Assembly: GCA_947175195.1 (NCBI GenBank)
Contig: CAMWLQ010000006.1
Span: 664-64,663 of the forward strand
Direction: 5' to 3'
Source: an uncultured Clostridia bacterium
Lineage (GTDB): Bacteria > Bacillota > Clostridia > Christensenellales > Pumilibacteraceae
DNA: 64,000 nucleotides
This document shows, piece after piece, positions 1,795 through 40,193 of this stretch; positions within the stretch are counted from its first letter, which is position 1; each line of letters opens with the position of its first letter. The position numbers and the translations under genes were made by a program. The notes under the pieces are model-generated. The model was not told where the DNA came from, did no database searches, and saw only the letters and a program-made list of their open reading frames with translations.

Positions 1795-1813
1795 TAATCA
1801 TTACGGTAGTACT

Positions 1814-4908: not shown

Positions 4909-4911
4909 GAC

Positions 4912-9785: not shown

Positions 9786-9814
9786 TTGACAAATTTACGT
9801 ATAAATGTTAATAT
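9786..9814 (+). promoter_or_regulatory. promoter TTGACA-17-TAATAT
   Basis: Consensus -35, 17-nt spacer, followed by SD AAAGGAG and the ATG at 9839. Confidence 0.55.
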
Positions 9815-9838
9815 TTTTATGCGTGCAAAGGAGAAAAA

Positions 9839-10273: not shown

Positions 10274-10718
10274 TATTATAACTCTTGCCCTATCGGCAAT
10301 AAACTCTTTAAGCGTTATCGTTATCGGAGTGCAAACCGCACGACGCGAAAAGAAAGAAAAAATAAAGTCAAAAAAGAAAATTTGGTACAAAACCGAAGTT
10401 ATTTCCAACGATAAAATCAATAAACACGTACAGGCTATTGAGCAGGTATTAAACGAGGAATCTGACAAATTAACCATGTGTCAAAAGCTAAATTCATGTA
10501 TGTTGGATTTTTTTTATTCCTCGATAAATTATATTGCATTCTTTAATATGAAGTATTGCGAACAAATTAAAAAAGAGATAATGGCGGCTATGGATAGCGT
10601 TATATGCGCAGTGGTTTACAGTGAGAATAAGATGAGCGACAGAGATAAAGAAAAAGCATTAAAAATTTATAGAATAAAAATCATGGCCCTATTTTATAAC
10701 TTAGACTTACAATTGTAA
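10260..10718 (+). CDS. hypothetical protein with N-terminal TM helix
   Basis: The internal ATG (MELIDIITLALSAINSLSVIVIG) overlaps the upstream stop by 14 nt. No family recognised. Confidence 0.4.
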   Translation: MELIDIITLALSAINSLSVIVIGVQTARREKKEKIKSKKKIWYKTEVISNDKINKHVQAIEQVLNEESDKLTMCQKLNSCMLDFFYSSINYIAFFNMKYCEQIKKEIMAAMDSVICAVVYSENKMSDRDKEKALKIYRIKIMALFYNLDLQL

Positions 10719-10743
10719 CATTTACAAAAAAGAGAGGTTCCTA

Positions 10744-11259
10744 ATGATAAAAATAATTGATTACGTAATCGACGATATCGTTAAACAGTATCAAAACGAT
10801 GTTTATAACAAAAAAATAGACGATATCTCTCAAGTCGTATATCCGTCTACCAATAAAAAAGATAAATTGGGGGAATGGGTAAGACAATACTTTGTTAAGT
10901 TAGATAGCGTTATTCAAGACGCGGTCAAACAAAGCGGGGTAAAGACCGGCGTTGTTATATTGGGATCTAAGCATACGACGTCAAGCGTGTACGTCAACCA
11001 TTTTGAACCGGGTATGTTGTACGACGTTTTGGAAAATTACGACAAAATGTTTCCTGTTCAGAAAAAATATCGGCACAATGAATGGGATTTTGAATATAAA
11101 AATGGCGCAGCCCATTTGAAATCTATTGCATTGGGAAAGGGTTCAACCGTATTTATTAAAAACGGAGATTTGGTTTTGGGTGATTTTGAGAATATTATTT
11201 ATGCGGAATTTGATTATCGTCCGTTAAAGTCATTCAACATAGTAATTATGGGTGAATAA
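10744..11259 (+). CDS. YjbQ/UPF0047 family protein (secondary thiamine-phosphate synthase-like)
   Basis: GSKHTTSSVYVNHFE ... NGAAHLKSIALGKGSTVFIKNGDLVLGDFENIIYAEFD. Confidence 0.7.
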   Translation: MIKIIDYVIDDIVKQYQNDVYNKKIDDISQVVYPSTNKKDKLGEWVRQYFVKLDSVIQDAVKQSGVKTGVVILGSKHTTSSVYVNHFEPGMLYDVLENYDKMFPVQKKYRHNEWDFEYKNGAAHLKSIALGKGSTVFIKNGDLVLGDFENIIYAEFDYRPLKSFNIVIMGE

Positions 11260-11282
11260 TATAATATATACGGAGGTTGAAT

Positions 11283-11942
11283 ATGTCGAAGCTGATCATA
11301 TTTGATTTTGATGGGACGATAGCCGACTCTATGTGGGCATGGGACGAGTTGGGTGAAGATACGATTAACGAGAATCATCTGCCACTAATAGATGATTATG
11401 AAGATGTGATAAGGACAATGAGCGTCCCCGATTTTGCCGACTATTTATCCGGAATTTATCCGCAATTGGGAAACGGCAAACAAATATTGTCGAATTGGCA
11501 TGAAAAAATGGTCTTTAAATACTGTAATCAGGTTTCTTTAAAAAGCGGGGTAAGAGAGTTTTTAGATTATTTAAAAAGCAACAACTATAAATTATATTTG
11601 GCCTCGGCAACTTGCTATGACGTATTAAATGAGGCATTAAATCATTTTGACCTTAAACAATATTTTGATTTTATTTTAACGGAAGAAATTGTGGGAATAT
11701 CAAAAAGAAACCCTCAAATTTATCAAGTATGTATAGATAGGGCTAAATCCGACATAGATAATACGATAGTATTCGAGGATGCGATTCATGCTGTCGAAAC
11801 AGTTAAAAATTTAGGTATTAAGGTGTGCGCTATTAAAGACTATTCTATGCGCAATCACGAAGAAGAAATTAAAAAAACGGCTGATTTGTATATTGAGGAT
11901 TACTGTAATTTCAATCAATTAAAAAATTTCATTTTAGGTTAG
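11283..11942 (+). CDS. HAD-superfamily hydrolase
   Basis: Motif I is IIFDFDGTIADS. SD GGAGG lies 6 nt upstream of the ATG. Confidence 0.75.
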   Translation: MSKLIIFDFDGTIADSMWAWDELGEDTINENHLPLIDDYEDVIRTMSVPDFADYLSGIYPQLGNGKQILSNWHEKMVFKYCNQVSLKSGVREFLDYLKSNNYKLYLASATCYDVLNEALNHFDLKQYFDFILTEEIVGISKRNPQIYQVCIDRAKSDIDNTIVFEDAIHAVETVKNLGIKVCAIKDYSMRNHEEEIKKTADLYIEDYCNFNQLKNFILG

Positions 11943-12140
11943 TGCTTGACGTAAAACGCGCTATTCAATATTTTGTATTGTAATATATGAACTCGTGCAA
12001 AGTGAGTTCGTATTTTGATTTAGCGGCTAAAATGGAAAATTCAAAGATTAAATTTTAATAAAAAACATTTTGACCTATTGAATTTTATATAAATATGTGA
12101 TATTATTTATATATACCTTATTGAATTATCGGAGGATAGT

Positions 12141-18939: not shown

Positions 18940-21900
18940 ATGGTGCAAAGCGAGCTTTACAAAAAGGTATTGGAATATGCGTTCGGCATGTGCCGCAAGG
19001 ACGGCAAGGCGTCGGTCAACGCCGACTATTTTGTCACGGCGCTGCTCAATATGGTATTGGCGCATAGCCGCGACGAGCTGGACGGCATACCCGAAATATA
19101 TATTTACAACAAGTCGGCGGTCAACAAGGAGTTGGCTGAGGCACGGCGCATATTCGAGCGCTACAACATAAACGTCATGGACGTTGCCGTGCGCATGGAA
19201 AGCGCGGTGCGCCATTCCGCAAACGACGCGGACGCGGGCATAGCCTTTCAAAAAACGGAGCGTGCGGCGCTTGTCAAGCTAAACGAGCAGGGCAGGAACG
19301 AGCTTACCACGTCCGTCATGCTGGAGATATTGCTCGGCGAGCCGACCGAATACATAAAGCAGTTCATAACCTCGGCAGGCATGGTCAAGCAGCCCGACGC
19401 GCCGTTGCCGTACGACAATGACGGCGCTGCGGAAGAGGCTGCCGCAGAGGCGCCCACGCCTGTCCAAGACGAGTATCCCGATATAACGAATAGTGACGAG
19501 AGTATCGACGATTTGATTGCGGACGCTATGGACAAGATAGCTCGGACGTTAGAAGACGACAGGGAATCGCCGCGGCAGGACAGCGACGAAAAACACGGCG
19601 TTACACCGCATAGGCGTTATACCGAAACCGAGCGTTACGGCGGGTACGACGCTCAGCCGCACGAACAGGCGAGCCAAAACCCTACTATTATCGACTATGC
19701 CGAAAGGGTTAAGGCCGTTCAGGACAAGCTGCTTGAGCGTGTGTTCGGGCAGGATTTGGCTGTGGAAATGTTCGTGTCGGGGTACTTTCAAGCCGAGCTT
19801 GTTTCCATGCTGATGAAGGGGCGCAAAAAGCCGCGCGCAACATTTTTGTTTGCCGGTCCGCCGGGGGTGGGCAAAACCTACCTTGCCGAATGTGCGGCGG
19901 AGGCGTTGGGACTTCCGTTCAAGCGGTTTGACATGAGCGAGTACTCCAATAACGAATCGGGACTGAACTTTGCGGGCACGGACAAGGTGTACAAGGGAGC
20001 GCACGAGGGCGCGGTTACGGGCTTTGTCGAGCAAAATCGGCGGTGCGTGCTGCTGTTTGACGAGGTGGAAAAAGCGCATCTAAACGTAATCAATTTGTTC
20101 CTGCAAATACTGGACGCGGGACGGCTGCGTGACACCTTTACCGAGCACGAGGTAGATTTTTCGGACGCCATAATCATACTTACCACCAACGCGGGCAAAA
20201 CGCTGTACGACGATCCCGACATAATCAATCTTTCGAGCGTGCCCAAAAAGACGGTTATTCGCGCGCTGTCCGCCGAACAGCGTTCGGACGGCACGCCGTC
20301 CTTTCCCGAGGCAATATGCTCACGGTTTGCCTCGGGCAACGTCGTTATGTTCAACAAGCTTGGCGCACACGAGCTGCTGCGCATTGCTGGCAACGAGGTC
20401 GCCGTCCACGCCGAGGCGCTCAACAACAAAACGGGCGTCAAGATAGAGCTTGACGAAAATATCAATTACGCAATACTGTACTCGGAGGGCGGCAACGCCG
20501 ACGCCCGCGCCATACGCGGCAGGGCGGTCAGCTTTTTCTACGGCGAGCTGTACGAGTTTTTACGCTTGGCGTCGTCGGACAAGCCCGCGCGCGATTTCGA
20601 TACTATCAAGCTGGATATAGAACAGCCCAATGATGAAAAAATAGCCGAGCTGTTTTCGCCCGCGCAAACCCCAGAAGTGTTAATGTTTACCGACGGTGAA
20701 CGCCAAAATCAGTGCCGCGCCGCGCTAAAAGGCGTAACGGCGCACTACACTTGCGACATAACGACGGCAAAAAACATATTGGCGGAAAACGATATTTCGA
20801 TTATCGTTTGCGATATTAAGTGCGGTCGGCGCAGCGGCAGGCAGTCGGTGCTCAATCTCGAGGACATCGACTCGGAAGGTCGCGACTTCTTCAACTACGC
20901 AAGCCAAAACGTGGCTACGCCTTTGTATGTGCTGGGCGACGGCTACGACATAAAAAGCGAGGAGCTTTTGTCCTTTTCGCGCAACGGCGCAATGGGCGTG
21001 ATAAGCCTGGGCGGCGACGACGTAAAAGACTTTACGGCGCAGGTGCTGGAAAAATGCAATATTGCCAAGCAGCAGCGCAACATGCTCGAGCTTGCGCGGT
21101 CGCAAAAGATTTTGTCGTACCAAACCGCGCAAAGCTTTGACGGCGACGGCACGGCAAGGATAACGCTGTTTGATCTTAAGCTGTCCGTGGCGGTGGACGC
21201 AGGCGACGGCGAAAGCGTGCTCAGCGGAATGTCCCGTCCCGACATCAAGTTCGACGACGTAATCGGCGCGGACGACGCAAAGCGCGAGCTGGGCTACTTT
21301 ACCGCGTATCTCAAAAATCCCAAAATATTCGCAAAAAACGGCGTGCGCCCGCCCAAGGGCATACTGTTGTACGGTCCGCCGGGGACGGGCAAGACCATGC
21401 TAGCCAAGGCGCTTGCGGGCGAGTCGGAGGTGACGTATATCGCCGCCGAGGGCAACAGCTTTTTAAGCAAGTGGGTAGGCGAGGGTCCCAAGCGCGTTCA
21501 CGAGCTGTTCGCAACGGCGCGCAAGTACGCGCCCGCGGTGCTGTTTATAGACGAGATAGACGCTATCGGCATTTCGCGCGCCGACCTAAGCGCCGACCGC
21601 GACACGACAAGTGAAATACTTACCGCACTACTCACCGAAATGGACGGATTTAAGGCTCACCCCGACAGACCTGTGTTTGTGCTTGCCGCAACCAACGTCG
21701 GCGTGGACGACGGCGGTAAAAAGCAGCTCGACCCCGCGCTGCTGCGCAGGTTTGACAGGCGTATAATGGTCGACCTGCCCAACAAGTCCGAGCGCGAAAA
21801 GTTTATGCGCATGCAGTGCGAGCGCAACGCCAACATCCGTCTTTCGGACGAGCAGCTGAAAAACATAGCCGTGCGCTCGACGGGTATGAGCCTTGCCGAC

Positions 21901-22569
21901 CTCGCGTCGGTTGTGGAAATGGCACTGCGCAGTGCGCTCAAAAATCCCGACTTTGACGTCACCGACGACATAATAGAAGAGGCGTTTGAGGAATATAACA
22001 GCGGCGAGGTCAAAAAGTGGGACGACGGCACGCTACTGCGCACGGCGCGGCACGAGTGCGGTCACGCGTTGCTGTACTGGCTGAGCGGAAAAACGCCGTC
22101 CTATCTTACCATTGTCGCGCGCGACAACCACGGCGGATATATGCAGTACGGCGACGAGGAGAGCAAGCCGCTGTATACTAAAGCCGAAATTTTGGCGCAC
22201 GTGCGCACAGCGCTCGGCGGCATGGCGGCGGAGCTTGTGTACTACGGCGATGACGACGGGCTGTCCACCGGGCCGAGCGGCGATTTGCAAAACGCGACAA
22301 GGCGAGTGGAAAATCTTATTTGCGCATACGGCATGGACGAAAAGATAGGCTTGGGCGCAATAGACGGCGCGGCGCTTATGCATTCGCCGTACTACGCGAC
22401 GGTGCATGCGCGCGTCAGCGAAATACTGGGCGAGCAGCTGGATGCGGCAAAGCAGGCAATAGAGCAAAACAAGCCCGCCGTTGACGAGCTTGTGCGCGTG
22501 CTTTTGGAAAACAACAAGCTAAAAGGCGAGCAAATCGACGGGATTTTGAGCGGGCTTGCCAAACGCTGA
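18940..22569 (+). CDS. soluble dual AAA+ protein: Clp-N-like + ClpB-D2-like AAA+ + linker + FtsH-like AAA+ and M41 metalloprotease
   Basis: The first module has FLFAGPPGVGKTYLAECAAEALGLPFKRFDMSEY and VLLFDEVEKAH...FLQILDAGRLRD. The second module has ILLYGPPGTGKTMLAKALAGE and VLFIDEIDAIG. The protease part has HECGHAL (HExxH) and GDLQNATRRVENLICAYGM. No TM segment seen. Confidence 0.8.
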   Translation: MVQSELYKKVLEYAFGMCRKDGKASVNADYFVTALLNMVLAHSRDELDGIPEIYIYNKSAVNKELAEARRIFERYNINVMDVAVRMESAVRHSANDADAGIAFQKTERAALVKLNEQGRNELTTSVMLEILLGEPTEYIKQFITSAGMVKQPDAPLPYDNDGAAEEAAAEAPTPVQDEYPDITNSDESIDDLIADAMDKIARTLEDDRESPRQDSDEKHGVTPHRRYTETERYGGYDAQPHEQASQNPTIIDYAERVKAVQDKLLERVFGQDLAVEMFVSGYFQAELVSMLMKGRKKPRATFLFAGPPGVGKTYLAECAAEALGLPFKRFDMSEYSNNESGLNFAGTDKVYKGAHEGAVTGFVEQNRRCVLLFDEVEKAHLNVINLFLQILDAGRLRDTFTEHEVDFSDAIIILTTNAGKTLYDDPDIINLSSVPKKTVIRALSAEQRSDGTPSFPEAICSRFASGNVVMFNKLGAHELLRIAGNEVAVHAEALNNKTGVKIELDENINYAILYSEGGNADARAIRGRAVSFFYGELYEFLRLASSDKPARDFDTIKLDIEQPNDEKIAELFSPAQTPEVLMFTDGERQNQCRAALKGVTAHYTCDITTAKNILAENDISIIVCDIKCGRRSGRQSVLNLEDIDSEGRDFFNYASQNVATPLYVLGDGYDIKSEELLSFSRNGAMGVISLGGDDVKDFTAQVLEKCNIAKQQRNMLELARSQKILSYQTAQSFDGDGTARITLFDLKLSVAVDAGDGESVLSGMSRPDIKFDDVIGADDAKRELGYFTAYLKNPKIFAKNGVRPPKGILLYGPPGTGKTMLAKALAGESEVTYIAAEGNSFLSKWVGEGPKRVHELFATARKYAPAVLFIDEIDAIGISRADLSADRDTTSEILTALLTEMDGFKAHPDRPVFVLAATNVGVDDGGKKQLDPALLRRFDRRIMVDLPNKSEREKFMRMQCERNANIRLSDEQLKNIAVRSTGMSLADLASVVEMALRSALKNPDFDVTDDIIEEAFEEYNSGEVKKWDDGTLLRTARHECGHALLYWLSGKTPSYLTIVARDNHGGYMQYGDEESKPLYTKAEILAHVRTALGGMAAELVYYGDDDGLSTGPSGDLQNATRRVENLICAYGMDEKIGLGAIDGAALMHSPYYATVHARVSEILGEQLDAAKQAIEQNKPAVDELVRVLLENNKLKGEQIDGILSGLAKR

Positions 22570-23172: not shown

Positions 23173-23526
23173 ATGAAAAAAATAGAATACCGCGCAATCA
23201 ACTGGAAAGCCACGGGGCGCAACCTGCAAAATTTGAGGTTGAATAATTACAATTTGCGCAAGTACGTGTGCTGGCAGCTGAAAAGCGGCGACAGTAATTG
23301 TATAGGCGATTGCGAAAAATGCAAGCTGGATATGGACAATCATATCAGCCAGGGCGAGCTCGCGCGCGTTTTCTATTTGGACAACGAGAGCAGGATAGTG
23401 AACTGGGAAAAGGGTAGAGCACGCCCTACGATAAGCGACCTATTGTACTATGCGGAAATATGCCGTATTCCGCTCGAGCAGGTGCTTATATTCGAAAATA
23501 GCGCAACCAACAATAAAGACCAATAA
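23173..23526 (+). CDS. XRE-type HTH regulator interrupted by a C-x9-C-x3-C-x2-C insertion
   Basis: TGRNLQNLRLNN ... CWQLKSGDSNCIGDCEKC ... ISQGELARVFYLDNESRIVNWEKGRARPTISDLLYYAEICRIPLEQV. Confidence 0.6.
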   Translation: MKKIEYRAINWKATGRNLQNLRLNNYNLRKYVCWQLKSGDSNCIGDCEKCKLDMDNHISQGELARVFYLDNESRIVNWEKGRARPTISDLLYYAEICRIPLEQVLIFENSATNNKDQ

Positions 23527-23710: not shown

Positions 23711-23746
23711 GAGAACTTGTAAAATTTACAGGTTCTCTTTTGTTTT
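23711..23746 (+). terminator. intrinsic terminator 185 nt downstream of the regulator stop
   Basis: GAGAACTTGT / ACAGGTTCTC 10-bp stem (one G-U) followed by TTTTGTTTT. Confidence 0.65.
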
Positions 23747-23781: not shown

Positions 23782-23810
23782 TTGAAGAGGTGCTTGACTT
23801 TTGCTACAAT
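23782..23810 (+). promoter_or_regulatory. promoter TTGAAG-17-TACAAT driving the structured leader and clpP-like operon
   Basis: Hexamers at 23782-23787 and 23805-23810. No other promoter-like sequence lies before the ATG at 24230. Confidence 0.55.
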
Positions 23811-23817
23811 ATCTATG

Positions 23818-24111
23818 GAGGGGAGGAAGCCATAGTGGACCCGAGCTCCGCAAGCCCAAACGCCGCATTATTGGCTATTTTGCCCCTTACGTCGCTTGAC
23901 GTACCGCAATGGGTACGACTGCGCTCCGTAAGTGTCAAACTATCTCAAAACTTCGGCGTTTGGGTGCGAGCAGTTTTTGGGAGCATAATGCGCCGTCAGA
24001 CAAGGAAAAGCGCACGAAGCTGTACTCTCTGTAGTACCGCGAGTGTGCTTTGACGCAGTATCACGGCGCAGGATGCCCCAAAAACCTTACGGGTTCGAGT
24101 CCACTATGGCT
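23818..24111 (+). ncRNA. unclassified structured RNA / long 5' leader (~290 nt)
   Basis: Perfect long-range helices: 23828-23840/24099-24111 (13 bp), 23855-23865/23954-23964 (11 bp), 23973-23981/24077-24085 (9 bp) and 23989-23996/24063-24070 (8 bp). Also 24008-24015/24043-24050 (8 bp with one G-U), local hairpins, and a possible pseudoknot 23866-23871/23985-23990. Confidence 0.5.
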
Positions 24112-24229
24112 ATGCAAAAAGCCGAAGAGATAAGCAAAGAGTTAAGCAAAAGGCAGGTCGACAACGGCTACAAACGTTTCAACAGCTCAAACACTTTTAA
24201 CGCGGAAAACCGCAAAGGAGAAAAGAACT

Positions 24230-24790
24230 ATGAATGAAAGAGAAAAGTTTTCTTGGGAGTACTCGCTCAACCGCAATACCGTCAATATCTTCGGTGTTGT
24301 GGACACTCCGATGGCTGAGCTGGTCATAGGTCAGCTCCAGTACTTGGACGACAAGTTCAAAAGCGAGGACGTTCCGCCGTCCGAACGCATTATCACGTTG
24401 CAAATCAACAGCCCCGGCGGGAGTGTCAGCGACGGACTTGCCATCTACGACACAATGAACTACATAGACGCCAAGATCCGCACGGTCGGGCTGGGTATGT
24501 GCGCAAGCATGGGCGCGTTTTTGCTGTCGTCGGGCACAAAGGGGATGCGCGCGGCTACCAAAAATTGCGAAATACTCATTCACCAGCCCATCGGCGGCGC
24601 AAGCGGTCAGGCGAGCGACATCATAATCGCCGCCAACCACATCGAGCGCATGCGGGCTCGGCTCAATAACATTCTTGCCGCCAACACCGGCAACACCGTC
24701 AAACGGATCAGAAAGGACACCGACCGCGACACCATTCTCACGGCGGACGAGGCAAAGGCGTACGGACTGATCGACATTGTTATAAAGTAG
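24230..24790 (+). CDS. clpP: ClpP-family (S14) serine protease paralogue with non-canonical short N-terminus
   Basis: INSPGGSVSDGLAIYDTM, CASMGAFLL (Ser), ILIHQPIGGASGQASDI (His), TDRDTILTADEAKAYGLID (Asp). SD AAAGGAG. Confidence 0.8.
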   Translation: MNEREKFSWEYSLNRNTVNIFGVVDTPMAELVIGQLQYLDDKFKSEDVPPSERIITLQINSPGGSVSDGLAIYDTMNYIDAKIRTVGLGMCASMGAFLLSSGTKGMRAATKNCEILIHQPIGGASGQASDIIIAANHIERMRARLNNILAANTGNTVKRIRKDTDRDTILTADEAKAYGLIDIVIK

Positions 24791-24869
24791 GGGTTAAACC
24801 CGAAGGAACGAAACGCATGATTTAAAGCGGCGGCAACGCTTAACTGTATTAATAAAGGAGGAATATATC

Positions 24870-26477
24870 ATGCTTACCAATCAAAACGAACTGTTTTTAT
24901 CGGAATACTTTTTTAGCCGCAGCGTGCTTGGCAAGCTGGTCAAGCACCCCAAGCATATGTTTGACACGCTGGGCGAAATATTCCTTATTCCCAAATGCGA
25001 CGTCGACGGACTGTACGCGCTTGCCGAGGACAAGCTGGTCGCCGACGTAAACAATTACGCCGACTACCTACAGTTTTGCCGTATCGAAAAGTACGTTGCG
25101 CTCGTGGACGGCGACGGCGGCGTCCCCGCCGAAATCGCGGACGTAATAGCGGTAAAGGGCGAGGCGCTGGCGCGGGCATACGACCTTAAGCTTGACGGAA
25201 CGCGCCTCACCGAATCGGCGGTTTTCCGTATGCTTACGGAGGGCGCGGCGCACGGCACGGTTGCGGCAATGCGCATACTCGGTTTTATTCAGTGCGAGGG
25301 CATTTATACCGATCGCGACCTCGCCGCGGGCGTCAAAAATTTGGAGCGTGCGGCGCAGTGGAACAGTGTGGAGGGCACGCTTGCCGCGCTGTACTACAAT
25401 GCGGAACGCCAAGCCGACGTCAACCGCCTGCGCACAGTCGCGGACGGCACGGTGTACCGCGCATTCCCCGCGCTTGCCGAGGCAAAGTACGGCATTGCCG
25501 CGGACGGCGAGGTAAAGGAGAGTAAGCTGCTTAACAAGGCGTTCGCGCTCGGCAAGCTCACGCCCGATATTTATTCGGCGCAGTACGCGCGCATCATATA
25601 CAGCGCGGTGCTTGCTCCGCGCGACAAGGAGCGCACAATGTTCTCGCCCAACGACCAAGCCATATCGGAGGTTGCCGAACTGCCGCTCAAGCTTAGCGGC
25701 GGCGCGCTTGCACCCGACTGTGCGGCATTCGACGGCATGCCGCTTGTGCGGCAAAAAGAGGAGGAGCGCATACGGCTTTGCCTGACCAACAGCGACCTGC
25801 TCGAGCGTTCGGCGTTCCGTCCGCTGTGCGTGTGCGCCGATTCGGAATACATGCGCAAGCTGTACGCGCGGCATATCCGCAAGGCGTTCTCCGCGGCGCA
25901 TGTGGAATACATAGACGTGGCGGGACTGGACGAGCACGACCTGCAGCCGACGGGCAAAAACATATTTGTGCGCAGCTGTGACGAGGACGCGTTCAACGTG
26001 TATCTTATGTCGTTTGTCGGCAATATCGCGGGCGGCGTAATGCAGGAGGCAATAGGATTCCTGCAAAGCCGTCGGCGCAAAAAGTTTTGCCTGCTCAGTC
26101 CGGGCGTGGTTATCGACCTTGGCAAGGTGCTGCCCGTATGCTTTTGCGACAAGGCAAACGCGAAGGAGCTTAAAAAGTACTGCGACGTTGTTACGGTCGG
26201 CGCGGTTTCCGCAGCCGAAAAGCCTGCGGCATACGACGATATGGTCAAGTCCAAACAGCGGCTGTACGGCGCAAAGTCCGTCACCCTGTCGGACGACGCC
26301 GTCGCGCGACTCAACGAGCTTTCGGTGGACGGCGCGGAAAACGTTATCGACTCGGTTATAAGGTTTAACCGCAACAAGGCGGAAACGGTAATCACGCCCG
26401 CGCTCATCGACGAGTGCGCCACTGCGCGCACCGAAAAGAATAGATACGGATTCGGAGGTGACGGCGATGAAATATAG
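24870..26477 (+). CDS. Sel1-like repeat protein with C-terminal AAA+-like half lacking a P-loop
   Basis: SD AAGGAGG. Sel1-like segment AAHGTVAAMRILGFIQCEGIYTDRDLAAGVKNLERAAQ. No GxxxxGK[ST] anywhere. Lid-like end VTLSDDAVARLNELSVDGAENVIDSVIRF. Confidence 0.55.
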   Translation: MLTNQNELFLSEYFFSRSVLGKLVKHPKHMFDTLGEIFLIPKCDVDGLYALAEDKLVADVNNYADYLQFCRIEKYVALVDGDGGVPAEIADVIAVKGEALARAYDLKLDGTRLTESAVFRMLTEGAAHGTVAAMRILGFIQCEGIYTDRDLAAGVKNLERAAQWNSVEGTLAALYYNAERQADVNRLRTVADGTVYRAFPALAEAKYGIAADGEVKESKLLNKAFALGKLTPDIYSAQYARIIYSAVLAPRDKERTMFSPNDQAISEVAELPLKLSGGALAPDCAAFDGMPLVRQKEEERIRLCLTNSDLLERSAFRPLCVCADSEYMRKLYARHIRKAFSAAHVEYIDVAGLDEHDLQPTGKNIFVRSCDEDAFNVYLMSFVGNIAGGVMQEAIGFLQSRRRKKFCLLSPGVVIDLGKVLPVCFCDKANAKELKKYCDVVTVGAVSAAEKPAAYDDMVKSKQRLYGAKSVTLSDDAVARLNELSVDGAENVIDSVIRFNRNKAETVITPALIDECATARTEKNRYGFGGDGDEI

Positions 26478-28146
26478 CAATAAACTGTTAAAGGGTTACG
26501 AGGATATGCGGCTAATCGGTTACGAGGACGCCGCACTCCCCAACACCGTTGCATACGACGAGTTACAGGACAATTACCTTGCCGGCGTGCTTAAAATGAA
26601 CAGGCACAAGGACGGCAAGCTCATTCAAACATACAGCGCTGCGGAAAGCCATGTGGGCGTGATTGCGGCGACGCGCTTGGGCAAAACTACAAGCTACGTC
26701 ATACCCACTATTGTGTCGTTTGCGCAGCAAAAGGTAAAGCGCAGCATGATAATATCCGACCCCAAGGGCGAGCTGTATAAAAGTACGTCGGAGTCGCTGC
26801 GCAACCAGGGCTACGACGTAAAGCTGCTCAACTTTCGCGACTACTTGCACAGCGAGTGCTGGAACATGCTCACGCCCATATACCGCAAGTACCAAAAGGC
26901 GATAGCCATTGCCGACGAGGCGGAGGTCGTAATCGACGGCGAGGAGCTTAAGCACAAGTTTTACGGACGGCTGTACACCGACTTTGCCGAGCTGCAACGC
27001 CAAATAGAGTACTACACCGATATGATGATGGACGAGGTGGGCAACGACATAGACATGCTTTGCTCAATGTTCATCACCACGGAAAAGCTGCAAGATCCGT
27101 ACTGGGAGGACAGCGCGCGCGAGCTGCTCAAGGCGTTTTTGTGGGCGATGCTGGAGGACAGCGGCAAGGAGGCTCACGCCACGCGAATCACCGAGGAAAC
27201 GTTCTCGTTCAGCACCATACTCACCATACTCGCGCAGTTCAAGGACGACAACGGCTCGCAATACAACGACAGCGGATATTTCTCCGCGCGCAAACCTACG
27301 TCGCGCGCATTGCAGCTTGCCAAGAACAACCTTTTGGAGAATGCAAGCAACACCCGCAAATGTATTGTCGCCACGTTCAACACCAAAATGGCTGTGTTCA
27401 GGGAGTGCGCCATGCGGCTGATTACCCGTTGCAACTCGTTTAATTTGGAAACAATTTGCGACAAGCCGACGGCGGTGTTTATAGACTACCGCGACGAGGT
27501 AAAGGTGCATTACCAAGTAATAAGCCTGTTCGTGCAAAACGCGTATAGGTTTTTGATAGATAAAGCCAATGCGTCGGGCAAAGGCAGGCTGGACGTGCCC
27601 TTCTACTTTATACTGGACGAGTTCGGCAACTTCCCCGCAATGCGCGACTTTGAAACGACCATATCGGCATGCGCTGGTCGCAACATATTCTTCATACTCA
27701 TATTCCAGTCGTATGCGCAACTCAACAAGGTGTACGGCGCGGACGTTGCGGAAATCATACGCGACAACCTGAACATGCACGTGTTTTTCGGCTCGAATAA
27801 CCCCGCAACGCTGCGCGCGTTTTCGGAGGAGTGCGGGGAGTACGCAAGGATTTCGCCGCTGTCCGCGCTCAACGGCAAAAGCGACGATATGGAAATGTAC
27901 AGCATAGAAACCATTCCGCTCGTCACCAAAAGTCGGCTTTCGCACTTCGCGCCGGGCGAGTGCATAATAACCGAGGCTAATTCGGGCTACGTAATGTTTT
28001 CCAAGCTGGAACGGTATTACGAATGTGCCGAGTTTTCCGATTTGCCTACTGCGGCGGAAACGGACTATATTTGCGACGTAAATCCGTTCGATAGAAAATA
28101 CGTTTACGAGGTAAAATTCAAGCGCAAGAGTATGTACGATTTTTAG
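26467..28146 (+). CDS. VirD4/TraG-like (type IV coupling protein family) ATPase without TM anchor
   Basis: GVIAATRLGKTTSYVIPT (Walker A), PFYFILDEFGNFP (Walker B), IFFILIFQSYAQLNKVYG. Overlaps the upstream stop by 11 nt. SD GGAGGTG. Confidence 0.75.
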   Translation: MKYSNKLLKGYEDMRLIGYEDAALPNTVAYDELQDNYLAGVLKMNRHKDGKLIQTYSAAESHVGVIAATRLGKTTSYVIPTIVSFAQQKVKRSMIISDPKGELYKSTSESLRNQGYDVKLLNFRDYLHSECWNMLTPIYRKYQKAIAIADEAEVVIDGEELKHKFYGRLYTDFAELQRQIEYYTDMMMDEVGNDIDMLCSMFITTEKLQDPYWEDSARELLKAFLWAMLEDSGKEAHATRITEETFSFSTILTILAQFKDDNGSQYNDSGYFSARKPTSRALQLAKNNLLENASNTRKCIVATFNTKMAVFRECAMRLITRCNSFNLETICDKPTAVFIDYRDEVKVHYQVISLFVQNAYRFLIDKANASGKGRLDVPFYFILDEFGNFPAMRDFETTISACAGRNIFFILIFQSYAQLNKVYGADVAEIIRDNLNMHVFFGSNNPATLRAFSEECGEYARISPLSALNGKSDDMEMYSIETIPLVTKSRLSHFAPGECIITEANSGYVMFSKLERYYECAEFSDLPTAAETDYICDVNPFDRKYVYEVKFKRKSMYDF

Positions 28147-28192
28147 CTAATATTTGACCAAAGCAAAGATTGCAAAGGGATTTATAAGGGGC

Positions 28193-28232
28193 GCAAAAAG
28201 TCTTCGGTTTTTCGAAGGCTTTTTGCTTTTTG
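28193..28232 (+). terminator. intrinsic terminator of the clpP-like operon
   Basis: GCAAAAAGTCTTCG / CGAAGGCTTTTTGC stem followed by TTTTT. Confidence 0.75.
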
Positions 28233-29153: not shown

Positions 29154-29624
29154 ATGAAGATAGTATTTTTGGATATAGACGGCGTGCTTAATTCGCGCGA
29201 GTACGACCGAGTTCGCGACAAATCAAAGCTGACCAATATAGACGAAACGCGTATTCCGTTTGTCAAACAAATCGTGGAGCAAACGGGCGCGGTTATCGTG
29301 CTCAGCTCGACCTGGCGCACGCACTGGAACAGTGACAGGAACAAGTGCGACGAGGACGGTTTGTATATTATCGATTTGTTCGGCAAGTACGGTGTGGAAA
29401 TATACGACAAAACGCCCGACTTGGGATATTTTGCCGACCGCCCCGACGAAATCAAGCAATACCTAATCGAGCTGGGCGAGGATGTAGAAAGCTTTGTCAT
29501 TATCGACGATTATCTATACGGCTGGGGTGACCTTAGCGATAGGTTTGTAAGGACCGACCCGTACCGTTCGCTCGGCATAGATTCCGACGTTGTCACCCAA
29601 GCCGTGAGGATTTTAAATAACTAA
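29154..29624 (+). CDS. small HAD-like phosphatase-fold protein
   Basis: KIVFLDIDGVLNS (DxDGV motif I). Confidence 0.55.
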   Translation: MKIVFLDIDGVLNSREYDRVRDKSKLTNIDETRIPFVKQIVEQTGAVIVLSSTWRTHWNSDRNKCDEDGLYIIDLFGKYGVEIYDKTPDLGYFADRPDEIKQYLIELGEDVESFVIIDDYLYGWGDLSDRFVRTDPYRSLGIDSDVVTQAVRILNN

Positions 29625-29677: not shown

Positions 29678-31372
29678 ATGAAAAACTACTATCAAATTTT
29701 AGGCGTAAAGCCGACGGCGACGGAGGCGGAGATAAAAAGCAGCTACCGCGTCCTCGCCAAAAAATATCATCCCGACGTCAATCCCGATGACGCGTCGGCG
29801 GCAAGCAAGTTTGCTGACATAAACGAGGCAAACGCGGTTTTGTCCGACCCGCAAGCGCGTGCGGAATACGACGCCAAGCTGCGCGAGGCGGCTGCGCCGC
29901 ATCCCAGTCAGGAGGAGATTATCGCACGCCAGCGCGCTCAAGCCCAAGAGGCGGCGCGGCAGGCTGCGTTCCGCAACATGAATATGAACATGGGCGGACG
30001 GCGTGACGCCGCGACCATGGCGCGTATGCGCGCGCAAGCACAGGCCCAGGCGCAAGCGAACATGGCGCAGGCACAAATACAAGCGTTGGTCAACCAAGCG
30101 TATCAGCAGGGCGTGACCGAGGCGCGCGCCCAGCTCGACGCGGAAATCAAAAAGCTGAAGGCGGCGCTTGCAACCGCGGTAGCTGAGAATAAAAAAATTA
30201 AGGCGCTCGAGGACAGCGAGACGGAGCTAAAGCGCAAGCTGCGCGACTCCGAGGAAGATAGGCGCGATTTGGAGCAGGAGCTGTTCAACCGCGACCGCGA
30301 GGCGACTCTCGCCAACACGCGTATAAAGGAATTGGAGGAGGCGCTCTCCGAGCAGGGCGGCAATGCGGCAAAGCGCGCCCGCAACGAAAACTCGGAGCTC
30401 AAAGCCGAGCTCGACAAAGCCAAAAAGACGATAAAAGAGCTTGAACGCGAAAAGTCCGCTATCCAAGCCGAAAAGGAAAAGATAGAAAAGGAAAAATCGG
30501 AGCTTTCCGATAATGTGAGCAAGCTGGAACGCGACAACAAGCAGTACGACCTGAAAAACTCGGCACAAATACGTTTGCAGCAGGATAAGCGCAGGCAGTT
30601 ACAGGACGAGATAGACGGGCTCAACAAAAAGATAGATGAGCTTACAGCCGAGCTGGAGGCGGTGCGTGCCGAAAACGAACAGTGGCAGCAGTACGCCAAG
30701 AGCGAGGAGTTCCTGTCCGACGCCGAAAAGCGTATAGAGGCGTGGACCAAAAAGACCAATGCCGATAAACGCCTTGCCAAGCCCACGCTGTACGGTGATT
30801 TGGGCGTGCTCATTTGGGCGACCGACGAGGAAATCACCGAAACTTACAACAAGCTGCACAAGCGTTATTCGGGCAAGACGGGCGACGCGATAGTAGCCAA
30901 GCTGCAAAAGGTTGAGGCGGCGTATGTCGTACTCGGCGATCCCGACAAGCGCAGGGAATACAACGCGAGCATAAATATTACCGAGGAACGCGTCGAGGCG
31001 GAGCGCAAGCTCATTGCCGAAAACGAGAGCATAATGGAAGAATACCGCAATCAGCTTGCCACCAAAGAGTTTTGGCAAAGGTTTGACGAGCTGACCGCCG
31101 CGGCAATGGAAGGCGACGCCGAATCGCAGTACACTCTCGGCACGATTTACTATTCGGGCGAGGATATTGACATCGACTACGAGCAAGCGTATTTTTGGTT
31201 TAAAGAGGCGGCAAAGCAAAAGCACGCCGACGCAATGTACTACTTGGGTATGTGCTACCTTAACGGTCACGGCACGGAAAAGAACGAAACCAACGGTCAA
31301 GGCTTTATCCGCCAAGCCGCCAAGTTAGGCTCCAAGCCCGCTCAAAAAGCGGTGAAAAAGCAAGGGCAATAG
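29678..31372 (+). CDS. J-domain protein with long coiled coil, a second HPD-less J-like domain and C-terminal Sel1 repeats
   Basis: [32 protein letters not shown]. Second J-like domain [33 protein letters not shown]...[11 protein letters not shown]. Sel1 repeats [55 protein letters not shown]. Confidence 0.75.
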
Positions 31373-32262: not shown

Positions 32263-32811
32263 ATGTCAAAGGTTTACGCTATGATTGCCGACGGCACGGA
32301 GGAGGTGGAGTGCCTCGCCGTTGTGGACTTGCTCCGCCGCGCGGGTATCGATACCGCGCTTGTATCGGTAGACGGCAAGCAAATTGTCGGGTCGCACAAA
32401 ATAAACGTTCAGGCGGACTTAATAGTCGGGCAAGTCGACCTTACCGCCGCGGATTTGATTTTCCTGCCCGGGGGAATGCCGGGGTCGGAGCACCTTGCGG
32501 CATGTGCGTCGCTGATGTCGGCGATAGATAAGCAAATTAAATCGGGCAAGCGCGTCGCGGCTATTTGCGCGGCGCCTGCGGTAGTGCTGGGCGCAAACGG
32601 GTATTTGCGCGGCAAAAAGGCTACGTGCTATCCGGGGTTTGAAGGCGACTGCACGGGCGCGACCGTAGATATTGCCGCGCGGGTCGTCACCGACGGCAAC
32701 ATAACCACGGCGCGCGGACTGGGCTGCGCCGTCGATTTGGGATTGGAGCTTATCCGCCTGCTCGTGGGCGACGGCGTGGCGCAAAAGGTCAAATCGGCAA
32801 TACAGTATTAA
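32263..32811 (+). CDS. DJ-1/PfpI (ThiJ-like) family protein
   Basis: KVYAMIADGTEEVECLAVVDLLRRAGI ... AAICAAPAVVLGANG (nucleophile elbow Cys). Confidence 0.8.
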   Translation: MSKVYAMIADGTEEVECLAVVDLLRRAGIDTALVSVDGKQIVGSHKINVQADLIVGQVDLTAADLIFLPGGMPGSEHLAACASLMSAIDKQIKSGKRVAAICAAPAVVLGANGYLRGKKATCYPGFEGDCTGATVDIAARVVTDGNITTARGLGCAVDLGLELIRLLVGDGVAQKVKSAIQY

Positions 32812-32900: not shown

Positions 32901-33959
32901 ATGGCAAAAAACAACAATCAACAAAACGGGCTTTCTCCCACTGATTTCTTGGCGAAAAAGTATTTCGATCAAGCGGAACGGCATTTTACGGGCGACGGAG
33001 TGCCCGTCGACTTTAAAAAAGCGGTAGACGGCTATACGCAAAGCGCCAAGCTCGGCTACGCGCCCGCCATATTCTCGCTGGGTGTGTGCTACATACGCGG
33101 CTTGGGCGTGGCAAACGACGAAAAAAAGGCTTATGATTTGATTAAGCAAGCCGCGGACATGGGCAATATCGACGCGCAGTTCACGCTCGGGCATTTCTAC
33201 TTTGACGGTTCGGTAGTGGAGCGCGATTACGGCAAAGCGGTGGAAATATTCCAAGCCGCTGCCGACCAAGACCATCCCGGCGGACTTAACGATCTCGGTT
33301 TTTGCTACCAGCGCGGGCTGGGCGTGGAAATCGACTTGGAAAAGGCGTTCGACTGCTATATGCGTGCGGCGGAACAGGATTTTGCCGCGGCGCAAAACAA
33401 CGTGGGCGACTGCTACAACTTTGGGCGCGGCGTAAAAGCGGACGGCGAAAAGGCGTACCTTTACTATTACCGTGCGGCGCAAAACGGATATTCGATTGCG
33501 CAAAACAACGTGGGCATGTGTTATCTCAACGGCAGGGGCGTAAAAATCGATTTTGCCCAAGCCGTGCATTGGTTTGAGCAGGCGGGCAAATCGGGCAACC
33601 CCGTAGCCGTTGCCAACCTCGGATTTTGCTACGAAACGGGCAGGGGACTGGAAAAGAACGCGGAAAAAGCCGTGCAGCTGTACACCATAGCTGCCGATGC
33701 GGACAGCGCACCCGGTCAGTACAATCTTGCCAAATGCCTGCGCGACGGCGTGGGTATAAAGGTGGACGAGTCGCGCGCGTTTTCGCTGTTCAAGCGTTCG
33801 GCGGAACAGGGCTTTCCCGTCGCATACGCCGACCTTGCCGACTGCTATACGCGCGGCATTGGCGTAAAAGCGGACAAAGAGCTTGCCCAAAGATACCAAA
33901 AGCTTGCCGAGGAGGCGGGCTATCCCAATTCCACAGCAAAGCCTGCGACCGACAAGTAA
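32901..33959 (+). CDS. Sel1-like repeat (SLR/TPR-family) protein
   Basis: About 8 tandem ~36-aa repeats of the type A..W...AA.QG...AQ..LG.CY..G.GV..D..KA. Confidence 0.8.
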   Translation: MAKNNNQQNGLSPTDFLAKKYFDQAERHFTGDGVPVDFKKAVDGYTQSAKLGYAPAIFSLGVCYIRGLGVANDEKKAYDLIKQAADMGNIDAQFTLGHFYFDGSVVERDYGKAVEIFQAAADQDHPGGLNDLGFCYQRGLGVEIDLEKAFDCYMRAAEQDFAAAQNNVGDCYNFGRGVKADGEKAYLYYYRAAQNGYSIAQNNVGMCYLNGRGVKIDFAQAVHWFEQAGKSGNPVAVANLGFCYETGRGLEKNAEKAVQLYTIAADADSAPGQYNLAKCLRDGVGIKVDESRAFSLFKRSAEQGFPVAYADLADCYTRGIGVKADKELAQRYQKLAEEAGYPNSTAKPATDK

Positions 33960-38339: not shown

Positions 38340-40193
38340 ATGAAAAAGTTCAAAGCACAGTCCCAAAAGCTACTCGATTTGGTTGTTAATTCCATATACG
38401 CCAACCGCGAAATATTTTTGCGTGAGCTCATATCCAACGCGTCGGACGCGCTGGACAAGCGCAGGTTTATGTCGCTGACCGACAGTACGCTTGCAGCCGA
38501 TTTCGGCATAGAGCTCAAGGTGGACAAGGCGGCGCGCACGCTTACTATAAGCGACAACGGCGTGGGCATGACCGACAAGGAATTGGAGGACAACCTCGGC
38601 GTTATTGCGGCAAGCGGTACGGAGGCGTTCAAAAAGGAGCAGGGCGTAAAGGAGAATGCCGAATTGATCGGACAGTTCGGCGTGGGATTCTACTCCGCGT
38701 TTATGGTGGCGCAACAGGTCACCGTCATCACCAAAAAGGTGGGGAGCGACCGCGCGTACAAGTGGATTTCGGACGGTGTGGAAGGCTTTGAGATAACGGA
38801 CGCCGAACGCGCGGACGCGGGCACGGACGTAATAATTTCGCTCAAGCCCGACGGCGACGACGACAAGTATTCCGACTATTTGGAAAGCTACCGCCTGACA
38901 ACGCTCGTCAAAAAGTATTCGGACTACATTCGTTATCCCATACGCATGATGACCGAAATGTACACCGAGGACAGGCAAAAAGCCGACGAGATGACCATAC
39001 TCAATTCGATGATTCCGGTGTGGAAAAAGCAAAAATCCGACCTCGGCGAAAACGAGCTGGACGAGTTTTACAAGCACGCATACCGCGACTACCGCACTCC
39101 GTTGCACAACATAATGACGCGCGTAGAGGGCGCGGTGGACTACACGGCGTTGCTGTTTATTCCGTCCGAGCCGCCTTACGACTATTATACCAAGGACTAC
39201 AAGCGCGGACTTTCGCTGTACTGCAACGGCGTGCTCATTATGGACACCTGTGCCGAGCTGCTACCCGAATACTTGGGCTTTGTGCGCGGCGTGGTGGACA
39301 CGCCCGATCTTGCGCTGAACATATCGCGCGAAACGTTGCAGCACGACAGGCGGCTGAAAGCTATAGCGAGCGGTTTGGAAAAGAAAATCCTTTCCGAGCT
39401 TGAAAAGCTGCTCAAAAACGACAGGGAAAAGTACGAAAAGATTTTCACGCAGTTCGGCAAGGCAATCAAGTTCGGCGCTTACAACAATTTCGGCGCGGAC
39501 AAGGACAAGCTCAAAGACTTGCTGCTGTACTATTCGGACAAGAACAAAAAGCATATCACCTACAAGGAGTACACTGCGGAGCTTAAGGAAAAAGCACCCG
39601 TGCTGTACGCGTGCGGCGAAACGGTAGAAAAAATATCCATGCTGCCTCAGCTCGAGGTCGCGCGGGACAAGGGCGACGACGTACTGTTTTTTGTCGACCC
39701 CGTGGACGAATTTGTCGCGCGCATGCTGGAGGACTACGACGGGCATAAGTTTGAAAATATCGCGTCGGGCAGCGAGGACGTAAAGCCCGAAAAGAAAGAG
39801 CATAAGGACTTGCTCAAGCGCATAGAGGAAAAGCTCAAGGGCAAAGCGACGGTTACCGCAACCGACAAGCTTAAGTCGTACCCCGTGTGCCTTGCGGCAA
39901 AGGGCGACGTATCGCTGGAAATGGAACGTATTATGGAGGCGATGGGCGGCGGCATCAAAGCCGAGCGCGTTTTGCAGGTAAATATGGAGCACCCGATTAT
40001 ACTCGGTATGGAAGGTCTTGCCGAGCAAGCCTTTGACGACACGGTTACCGTACTGTACAACGAGGCGTTGATTGCCGAGGGGTACAAGACCGAGCCCGAG
40101 TTTTTGGCGGCAATAAACAGGCTGCTTGCAGGCGAGCAAAAACCGCCGAAAAAGCCCGCTGCCAAAAAGCCCGCCAAAAAAGATGAAGAATAA
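38340..40193 (+). CDS. htpG: molecular chaperone HtpG (Hsp90)
   Basis: FLRELISNASDALDK, GQFGVGFYSAFMVA. Confidence 0.9.
   Translation: MKKFKAQSQKLLDLVVNSIYANREIFLRELISNASDALDKRRFMSLTDSTLAADFGIELKVDKAARTLTISDNGVGMTDKELEDNLGVIAASGTEAFKKEQGVKENAELIGQFGVGFYSAFMVAQQVTVITKKVGSDRAYKWISDGVEGFEITDAERADAGTDVIISLKPDGDDDKYSDYLESYRLTTLVKKYSDYIRYPIRMMTEMYTEDRQKADEMTILNSMIPVWKKQKSDLGENELDEFYKHAYRDYRTPLHNIMTRVEGAVDYTALLFIPSEPPYDYYTKDYKRGLSLYCNGVLIMDTCAELLPEYLGFVRGVVDTPDLALNISRETLQHDRRLKAIASGLEKKILSELEKLLKNDREKYEKIFTQFGKAIKFGAYNNFGADKDKLKDLLLYYSDKNKKHITYKEYTAELKEKAPVLYACGETVEKISMLPQLEVARDKGDDVLFFVDPVDEFVARMLEDYDGHKFENIASGSEDVKPEKKEHKDLLKRIEEKLKGKATVTATDKLKSYPVCLAAKGDVSLEMERIMEAMGGGIKAERVLQVNMEHPIILGMEGLAEQAFDDTVTVLYNEALIAEGYKTEPEFLAAINRLLAGEQKPPKKPAAKKPAKKDEE

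Follow-up and report, generated by a model that had tools for sequence, protein, structure and literature searches.

A conserved operon of gut Clostridia joins a ClpP paralogue, a P-loop-less AAA+-like protein and a soluble VirD4-type ATPase: a possible three-tier protease

To our knowledge, all known energy-dependent compartmentalised proteases (ClpXP, ClpAP, ClpCP, HslUV, Lon, FtsH and the proteasome) use an AAA+ motor. Here we describe a three-gene operon on a stretch of 64,000 nucleotides from an uncultured Clostridia bacterium (contig CAMWLQ010000006.1, positions 664 to 64,663 of the forward strand; the whole stretch is called the window below). It encodes a ClpP paralogue, a P-loop-less middle protein of predicted AAA+ fold, here called Mid, and a soluble ATPase related to the VirD4/TraG coupling proteins of conjugation. 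The operon may specify a lineage-specific protease of three tiers, in which a VirD4-type ATPase, the pseudo-AAA+ adaptor Mid and ClpP are stacked, and we put the probability of this reading at roughly 40%. The three genes are the following:

24230 to 24790, plus strand: ClpP paralogue, 186 aa (Pfam PF00574, E = 1.5e-59)
24870 to 26477, plus strand: Mid, 535 aa, with a helical/Sel1-like N-terminal domain, a predicted P-loop-less Lon/Clp-type AAA+ fold and a disordered YGFGG tail
26467 to 28146, plus strand: soluble VirD4/TraG-type ATPase of the FtsK-HerA superfamily, 559 aa (PF02534, PF12696 and PF10412)

An open reading frame (ORF) scan of the window bore out these three co-oriented ORFs, as well as the originally predicted overlap by which the ATPase start at 26467 precedes the end of the Mid gene by 11 nt; an alternative GTG at 26458 is likewise open.

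The locus resembles several described systems and departs from each of them. As in ClpXP, ClpAP and ClpCP, there is an S14 ClpP with a Ser-His-Asp triad, encoded here in an operon with a partner of predicted Lon/Clp-type AAA+ fold that bears a flexible Φ-G-F element resembling (V/I)G(F/L). However, Mid has neither Walker A nor Walker B, its motif is found on a C-terminal tail instead of an internal loop, the only ATPase is a separately encoded RecA-fold protein of the FtsK/HerA/VirD4 class, and the ClpP is without the N-terminal axial segment and the pocket tyrosines. The AAA+ module of LonA is the best Foldseek match of the Mid model (E = 1e-7, probability 1.0, 340-360 aligned columns) and shares with it helical N-terminal elements, an αβα domain and a lid, but the template modelling (TM) score is about 0.4, the identity is 13-17%, and Mid carries neither nucleotide-binding motifs nor a fused S16 protease domain, so that ClpP would supply the protease in trans. 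Similarly, the third protein has the nucleotide-binding domain, all-alpha domain and TraG-D_C region of the type IV coupling proteins (T4CPs) VirD4, TraG and TrwB (NF045973), yet it lacks N-terminal transmembrane helices, has 559 aa compared with 729 aa in a plasmid homologue, carries a conserved ΦFDF tail and lies always beside Mid, not beside a type IV secretion system (T4SS) or relaxase.

Looser likenesses extend to three further groups. The Sir2-HerA and DUF4297-HerA systems also couple a hexameric ATPase of the FtsK/HerA superfamily genetically to an effector that does not translocate DNA, a coupling known here from the genes; they differ in that the present ATPase belongs to the VirD4 branch and not to HerA, there is no defence context or PADLOC call, and the effector would be a self-compartmentalised protease reached via a pseudo-AAA+ adaptor. 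Proteasome activators (PAN and Mpa with HbYX or GQYL; Bpa/PafE) dock on and gate their protease through flexible C-terminal tails with an aromatic residue, and Bpa does so without ATP. Here the protease is ClpP rather than 20S and the motif differs, so the likeness is mechanistic only. Lastly, the ClpP1P2 pairs of Mycobacterium, Chlamydia, Pseudomonas and Listeria likewise involve a second, diverged ClpP with altered partner specificity, whereas the paralogue of this operon is linked to non-Clp partners. The combination of ClpP, Mid and a VirD4-like ATPase was not described in the literature searched or in the defence and family libraries, in agreement with the original prediction that the trio is not a named system, and we file it as a candidate ClpP protease complex in which the motor has been swapped and a pseudo-AAA+ protein serves as the adaptor, new as a combination.

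The linkage of the three genes is widely conserved. A species-level survey, for which one genome per species was scanned, returned 50 loci, all from uncultured gut Clostridia and many of them labelled Christensenellaceae or Christensenella (individual loci are cited below by L numbers). The VirD4-like gene adjoins Mid on its 3' side, overlapping it or a few bases apart, in 49 of the 50 loci, and the ClpP paralogue lies immediately upstream of Mid in 31; the same trio was recovered when look-ups were anchored on the ATPase or on ClpP instead of Mid. In loci where Mid drops to 28-40% identity with the window protein, the ATPase still shows 49-94% and ClpP 58-97%, a pattern that argues for strong purifying selection. 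There are about 100 close clusters of Mid, nearly all of 531-541 aa, and an exhaustive profile search found 492 cluster representatives (50% identity), of which 256 reach E <= 1e-30; nearly all of the top 150 clusters are of ~510-560 aa. The operon had been called an orphan, and its description as such does not hold, given at least 256 Mid clusters at this identity and threshold and a trio that is syntenic across the surveyed species, where a lack of synteny had been anticipated as counter-evidence. The trio is a conserved, co-oriented and tightly coupled module, neither a chance neighbourhood nor a decayed integrative and conjugative element (ICE), and the three genes very probably work as one functional module. 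Furthermore, Mid and the ATPase are translationally coupled, which suggests that they form a stoichiometric complex.

The first protein can be placed with some precision. It scores 201.4 bits against PF00574 (cutoff 20.2), and between residues 15 and 185 its identity with solved Firmicute ClpPs is 55-60%. The contexts of the Ser-His-Asp triad (GMCASMGAFLL, ILIHQP and DTDRD) align with those of the solved ClpPs and are conserved in 32 paralogues, which confirms the S14 catalytic context recognised at first sight. The protein stays below all NCBIfam equivalog and subfamily cutoffs for ClpP (for example, 190.9 against 308.6 for TIGR00493), and the phage head-maturation models are sub-threshold as well (NF045542, 86.6 against 120; NF045540, 95.1 against 475). 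Cellular ClpP models score about 191-203 bits compared with 87-95 bits for prohead proteases, and no capsid genes lie nearby; a grouping with prohead proteases, considered beforehand as a point that would speak against the module, was thus not seen. By these scores the protein is a true ClpP paralogue and not a prohead protease.

The N-terminus and the docking surface set this ClpP family apart. When the 32 paralogues are aligned with the ClpPs of B. subtilis and E. coli, ~11 N-terminal residues are missing across the paralogue family and the rest of the axial N-terminal segment is replaced by a family-specific motif, E(K/E)FSW(E/Q)YSL(N/K)RNT, so that the originally claimed replacement of the canonical segment is borne out. 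Most paralogues, including that of the window, also carry an 8-residue insertion. Clp ATPases dock in hydrophobic pockets of ClpP via a flexible (V/I)G(F/L) motif, and Y63 of B. subtilis and S. aureus ClpP is a pocket residue that controls the N-terminal gate (PMC8182300). This Tyr63 is Gln in the paralogue family. In addition, the positions aligned with Y60, F112 and L114 of E. coli ClpP, which we take to be docking-pocket residues, are T, A/R and T across the family. With the pocket remodelled in this way and Tyr63 lost, the paralogue is unlikely to be served ordinarily by ClpX or ClpC, and from the sequences it would probably not respond to ClpX, nor perhaps to activators of the acyldepsipeptide (ADEP) type. 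As a separate observation, many paralogues of loci L023-L055 (e.g. L030, L032 and L036) have a conserved C-terminal extension, ...IPSxNKAKGG..., which the ClpP of the window lacks.

Mid is matched by no Pfam, NCBIfam or PADLOC model, AAA models included; it has no plasmid relatives, and sequence searches of the PDB gave nothing useful beyond a weak Sel1 match. Its nature is suggested instead by structure prediction. An AlphaFold2 model from a 30-sequence alignment (predicted local distance difference test score, pLDDT, 90.3; predicted TM score, pTM, 0.79) consists of an all-helical N-terminal half followed by an α/β domain and a lid, with residues 520-535 disordered (pLDDT below 50). Besides LonA, Foldseek matched it to viral Lon/ClpA AAA+ modules (E = 2e-7, probability 1.00). 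The P-loop GxxxxGK[ST] occurs in 0 of 226 full-length family members, the β1-α1 junction reading PLCxxxDSxY (alignment A1), and there is no Walker B hhhhDE. The modelled structure is that of a P-loop-less AAA+ fold of Lon/Clp type, and this fold together with the missing P-loop makes the initial description of Mid as "P-loop-less AAA+/Sel1", including an AAA+-like C-terminal half without GxxxxGK[ST], correct. The Sel1-like repeat of that description is less firm: the family profile matches the Sel1 protein of PDB entry 6ok3 weakly (E = 9.5e-4, residues 113-195), and Pfam gives no Sel1 match. An internal AIGFLQ was rejected as a ClpP-docking loop as it is not conserved in alignment A1, and the early caution that this IGF tripeptide is no evidence of docking was justified.

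A different motif, missed in the original prediction, is found at the other end of the protein. In the disordered tail of Mid, at a distance of 4-14 residues from the C-terminus in the 226 members, there is a nearly invariant Φ-G-F-G-G, which reads YGFGG in the window. Its first position is taken by Y (105 members), F (37), I (34), L (9), V (2) or M (2). The motif is placed on a tail rather than a loop and begins mostly with Y/F rather than I/V. Its form follows the presence of ClpP. In the ClpP-linked loci, counted over the 31 genome loci and the non-duplicate extra loci L056, L057, L073, L077 and L080, the first tail residue is aromatic throughout (YGF, FGF or a GFGYGG variant) and in none is it aliphatic. 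The 19 loci without ClpP have IGFGG, with the tripeptide of ClpX type (13), MGF (1), CGF (1) or Y/F (4, one of which ends at a contig edge). On a tree of Mid, the IGF loci fall into one clade of 13 members and the single locus L046, which is nested among loci with YGF and ClpP, and at least two independent tail switches are visible. This pattern is suggestive of a tail that contacts ClpP, namely the dedicated, remodelled ClpP where it is aromatic and the housekeeping ClpP where it reads IGF. Docking of the Mid tail on ClpP is, in our judgement, slightly favoured.

The third protein matches PF02534 (5.9e-50, 170.9 bits), PF12696 (2.5e-25, 89.3 bits) and PF10412 (56.5 bits). Its best NCBIfam match, NF045973 (VirD4-like, CD1115 family), is a marginal miss at 247.1 bits against a cutoff of 250, and its sole PDB sequence match is Cagβ/VirD4 (8dol). 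Cagβ (8dol), TrwB and DotL also lead the Foldseek ranking of its model, a coarse comparison in which HerA complexes come out weaker. The Walker A sequence AATRLGKT is present in 102 of 119 relatives, and YFILDEFGN is conserved as Walker B. There is no transmembrane helix (Kyte-Doolittle 19-residue maximum 1.32, at the Walker B strand), so the claim of VirD4/TraG motifs without N-terminal membrane helices stands. By comparison, a CD1115-family homologue on a C. difficile plasmid has 729 aa and two N-terminal transmembrane helices (2.44 and 2.27) and lies in a conjugation locus, and the nearest plasmid T4CPs are only 25-30% identical. No relative was found inside an ICE in the contexts read, an arrangement that had been raised as counter-evidence. 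On this comparison of sequences, the ATPase is a soluble offshoot of the CD1115-type coupling proteins of Firmicutes. Its C-terminus consists of a Lys/Arg-rich linker that ends in ΦFD(F/Y/L), for example MYDF, PFDF, LFDF or PFDY. This tail (28090-28146 of the window, ending MYDF) is conserved in about 45 loci with or without a linked ClpP, and such independence from ClpP fits docking onto Mid, the invariant partner. The tail may thus serve for docking as well, with Mid as its simplest target.

The reading that we prefer builds on the observed gene linkage, folds and motifs and on the link between the tail motif and the presence of ClpP; it would further have the partners dock, the rings stack, protein serve as the substrate and the whole act in proteostasis or regulatory proteolysis. 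In detail, the ClpP paralogue would be the degradation chamber, made specific for a dedicated partner by its truncated axial loops and remodelled clefts. Mid would be a ring-forming pseudo-AAA+ adaptor, with a Lon/Clp-type fold and no nucleotide binding, that docks on ClpP by its flexible C-terminal tail with a ClpX-like Φ-G-F, while the helical/Sel1-like domain at its N-terminus would be the binding site for substrates or for the motor. The motor itself would be a VirD4-type hexamer, which would supply the ATP-driven translocation or unfolding lost by Mid and would dock through its own C-terminal ΦFD(F/Y) tail. The three tiers would be coaxial, much as in the double-ring Clp/Hsp100 proteins, with the active tier swapped for another class of ATPase. 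In lineages without a dedicated ClpP, the IGF-tailed Mid presumably uses the housekeeping ClpP. The original suggestion of a non-AAA+ ATPase working with ClpP, which we still infer rather than observe, is strengthened by the Φ-G-F tail of Mid, by the tracking of tail and ClpP and by the remodelled pocket.

If this three-tier protease exists, the rule of AAA+ motors would be broadened to include an AAA+ ring that does not bind nucleotide, with a VirD4-type ATPase as the sole motor, and there would be direct evidence that coupling-protein ATPases can have proteins as substrates at a distance from any membrane or secretion channel. It is doubtful, in our view, that it would prove the first self-compartmentalised protease with a non-AAA+ motor, a VirD4/FtsK-HerA hexamer threading proteins via a dead AAA+ ring into ClpP. 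The further idea that such a protease forms a new class of ATP-dependent protease, derived from a domesticated conjugative coupling protein, is put forward with the same reserve, as a speculation. The case in any event appears to show a conjugation gene that was domesticated and took on a chromosomal role in uncultured gut Clostridia (Christensenellaceae-like), which are abundant, and it offers a natural experiment in tail-pocket co-evolution, IGF against Y/FGF, with or without a dedicated ClpP.

Several points weigh against the three-tier protease. We know of no ATPase of the FtsK/HerA/VirD4 class that feeds a compartmentalised protease, and T4CPs are best known for handling relaxase-bound single-stranded DNA (ssDNA). 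A linked ClpP is missing from 19 of the 50 loci, and L012, L041 and L042 have an aromatic tail though no ClpP lies within 6 kb. The association of tail and ClpP, though very strong in raw counts, rests on only about two independent evolutionary events and is for this reason treated as suggestive only. Moreover, the docking pocket is more polar than the canonical one, and its acceptance of a GF motif is not obvious. The AlphaFold2 model of the ATPase is poor (pLDDT 64.7) and was as such used for a coarse fold match only. Finally, FtsK_gamma winged-helix DNA-binding proteins (families f5 and f19) are encoded directly after the ATPase gene in 14 loci, which hints that DNA could be involved.

Two other readings have to be weighed, and we regard both as improbable. 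In the first, Mid opens the gate of ClpP or acts as its adaptor without the use of ATP, in analogy with the proteasome activators Bpa/PafE or PA28, and the ATPase is a substrate, a regulator or a DNA-handling partner controlled by Mid-ClpP. Mid does have a docking-type tail and no nucleotide site, and T4CPs elsewhere are regulated by small partners, e.g. Cagβ by CagZ in 8dol. In addition, the paralogue is without the axial gate segment and the gate-controlling Tyr (PMC8182300), and its pore may for that reason admit unfolded substrates without a motor. However, it is Mid and the ATPase that form the invariant, translationally coupled pair, with ClpP the dispensable member; the ATPase, the most conserved of the three, has intact catalytic motifs, and its C-terminal tail looks more like a docking element than a degron.

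The second is that the module serves as an anti-conjugation or anti-phage defence, which the original prediction had offered beside quality control. The coupling protein would sense or move invader DNA or a relaxase, and Mid would link it to ClpP, which would destroy invader or host proteins, the latter as abortive infection; if so, the operon would add a new, protease-based system to the known defences against plasmids or phages. Such a role would suit an ATPase descended from conjugative CD1115-type T4CPs, and ATPases of the FtsK/HerA class scaffold effectors in Sir2-HerA and DUF4297-HerA, although these are the weaker structural matches here. The FtsK_gamma genes directly downstream in many loci, a weak PADLOC mad8 match of the ATPase (5.2e-6), the conflict-like neighbours in L077 (ThiF/E1 and AAA_2) and L080 (helicase, kinase and PP2C) and the recurrence of HAD_SAK_2 neighbours point the same way. 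Against this, neither ClpP nor Mid has a match in PADLOC-DB v2 and no system was called; the FtsK-gamma gene is missing from the clade of the window; Mid and the ATPase have no close plasmid relatives; the neighbours are mostly housekeeping or chaperone genes, with no integrase, transposase or defence-island signature flanking the operon in the contexts read; and the high conservation and uniform architecture over hundreds of clusters are unlike fast-evolving, patchy defence genes. On balance there is no positive evidence for the defence proposal, and high, vertical-looking conservation, chromosomal contexts and recurring chaperone and protease neighbours make proteostasis or regulated proteolysis the likelier function.

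Almost no weight can be given to a last alternative, in which the T4CP-like gene is an ICE or conjugative remnant and ClpP a phage prohead protease that are neighbours by accident: Pfam and NCBIfam do name the third protein a conjugative coupling protein, and there are the sub-threshold head-maturation matches, but the idea is effectively refuted by the absence of relaxase, VirB4, pilin, capsid, portal and terminase genes from the window and the contexts read, by three intact, strongly conserved genes in at least 50 species, by the distance of the ATPase from real plasmid T4CPs with their transmembrane helices and conjugation loci, and by the far better scores of the protein with cellular ClpP than with prohead proteases.

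The wider surroundings of the operon are those of an ordinary chromosome. A Pfam survey of about 46 ORFs of the 64-kb window found no T4SS, relaxase, VirB4, pilin, capsid, portal or terminase gene, as had been claimed for the T4SS genes, and the genes identified include RF-1/PCRF, Mfd/TRCF, HtpG, lipid synthesis, DegV and a CLC channel. In related loci the flanks vary by clade (V-ATPase; ThrRS/SmpB/RNase R; RelA/SpoT; YitT-HtpG), and the Pfam-annotated contexts contain no T4SS or relaxase genes and, beside the operon, no integrase, transposase or defence-island signature. Neighbours of proteostasis type recur, among them soluble FtsH-like/AAA_2, DnaJ-Sel1, HtpG, DJ-1/PfpI, Hsp70-like and Clp_N proteins, and AAA_2 proteins occur near the trio in several clades.

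In the window, the plus strand at 18940-22569 encodes a 1209-aa soluble protein (no transmembrane helix, Kyte-Doolittle maximum 1.22) composed of an N-terminal region, a ClpA/ClpB-D2-like AAA_2 domain, an FtsH-type AAA domain and an M41 metalloprotease. It is kept just upstream of the operon only in the clade of the window (L001, L010 and L060), and its AAA domains give IetA/DolB-like matches in PADLOC. Further proteostasis-type genes lie around the operon at 29678-31372, 32263-32811, 32901-33959 and 38340-40193; the genes there include a DnaJ-coiled-coil-Sel1 fusion, DJ-1/PfpI, a 7-repeat Sel1 protein and HtpG. YitT-HtpG-SDR is found ~9 kb downstream of the operon in the window and directly adjoins the trio in L077-L079, which suggests that the clade of the window gained insertions between them.

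Other neighbours are confined to particular clades. The FtsK_gamma proteins described above are acidic, with E values down to 3.9e-20 (L030, 9327-10703; L034, 9299-10321; L004, 11305-12021), and no such gene was found in the window. Directly upstream of the trio in L077-L079, which are from an abundant gut species, positions 2035-6083 encode a ThiF/E1-like protein of 702 aa, an AAA_2 ATPase of 451 aa and a protein of 200 aa, a ThiF/E1-AAA_2 set that may be a ubiquitin-like conjugation or conflict module. In L080, the stretch upstream of the trio (1-6732) encodes a large SF1 helicase (AAA_11/AAA_12), a Ser/Thr kinase, Fe-S proteins, a PP2C phosphatase and a transglutaminase-core protein. A gene for HAD_SAK_2, a 'Swiss Army Knife' HAD protein of RNA-repair type, lies a few kb downstream of the operon in nine loci of divergent clades (window, 29154-29624; L004, 13647-14123), and the L004 clade has Metallophos and Clp_N proteins as further recurring neighbours. 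Elsewhere in the window (1814-8805 and 8000-12000), genes for a UvrD-like helicase, for two unannotated proteins of 238 and 804 aa and for a nuclease of NERD-Zn-ribbon type are followed by a stretch of low GC (0.33-0.35 compared with about 0.50); the region from UvrD to the low-GC stretch could be a defence or mobile islet, unconnected with the operon.

The operon is framed by the following features:

23173 to 23526, plus strand: XRE/HTH-type protein, 117 aa (weak HTH_3 match; PADLOC HTH_VI, 7e-5)
23711 to 23737, plus strand: terminator hairpin of this upstream HTH gene, a 12-bp stem with a T-run, kept in L006-L009
23782 to 23810, plus strand: sigma-70-type promoter TTGAAG-17-(TG)TACAAT with an extended TG, from a consensus scan
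23828 to 24123, plus strand: inserted structured RNA element of ~285-295 nt, with a closing stem of 23828-23840 and 24099-24111
24124 to 24229, plus strand: native short 5' untranslated region with a Shine-Dalgarno sequence, AAAGGAGAAAAG, 5' of clpP, aligned and kept in L006-L009
28193 to 28232, plus strand: intrinsic terminator that ends the operon, with a 15-bp stem (28193-28226), a 4-nt loop and a T-run

A homologue of the HTH gene lies upstream of the operon on the same strand in 16 related loci, and its 117-aa product is a candidate regulator. Although promoter-like sites are not enriched in the consensus scan (8 found compared with 5.6 expected in shuffles), both hexamers of the operon promoter keep the same relative position in four related genomes (alignment A2, L006-L009). 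The promoter and the strong terminator that had been read from the window are therefore both present as described, and a hairpin homologous to the terminator was found in L010.

The leader between promoter and clpP had been noted as helix-rich, and this holds for its fold: 23815-24229 is predicted to fold at -161.7 kcal/mol (z = -8.1), a stability that none of 100 shuffles reached. The stretch that is rich in helices, 23828-24111, is however an insertion and not a feature of the operon. In L006-L009 the same promoter is followed by a short leader of about 85-95 nt without the element, and alignment with these relatives places the insert of the window, ~295 nt, about 18 nt past the -10 hexamer. 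The leaders of L056-L059 are also without it, as are relatives with 84-87% Mid identity. A role as a conserved cis-regulator of the operon was accordingly rejected, and since close relatives lack the element it is not counted as part of the protease module.

Searches for known relatives of the element returned little. Rfam gave no match at gathering or at E <= 10 for the copies of the window and L034, and a mir-22 match (E = 0.023) that overlaps the upstream terminator and promoter was dismissed as chance; ARAGORN found no tmRNA or tRNA-like structure in the leader, and blastn found no match to the element in phages or plasmids. Similarly, no more copies came to light in 739 kb of related loci, either with nhmmer or with a covariance model built on the conserved arm (R1), and a strict 23-nt pattern had no hits among contigs from metagenomes or viruses, while a looser pattern of the 5' end hit 10 loci, of which only L071 is real.

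Full copies are thus known from the window, from L034 (11960-12282, 2.7 kb downstream of the operon of that genome) and from L071 (702-995, on a 1.3-kb metagenome contig), and an internally deleted relic lies between the ATPase stop and the terminator in L010 (9307-9400) and L060 (13311-13401). The three full copies share a closing stem of ~23 bp, a variable arm and a conserved arm of ~95 nt. Compensatory double changes affect 20 of their 92 predicted pairs; in a two-sequence comparison 16 of 71 pairs are compensatory and none is broken. The element looks like an unclassified structured RNA. It has terminal inverted repeats of 13-21 nt, its sites differ between genomes, and at the three that lie in or near the operon it is always in sense orientation; it is possibly mobile, in the manner of a miniature inverted-repeat transposable element (MITE).

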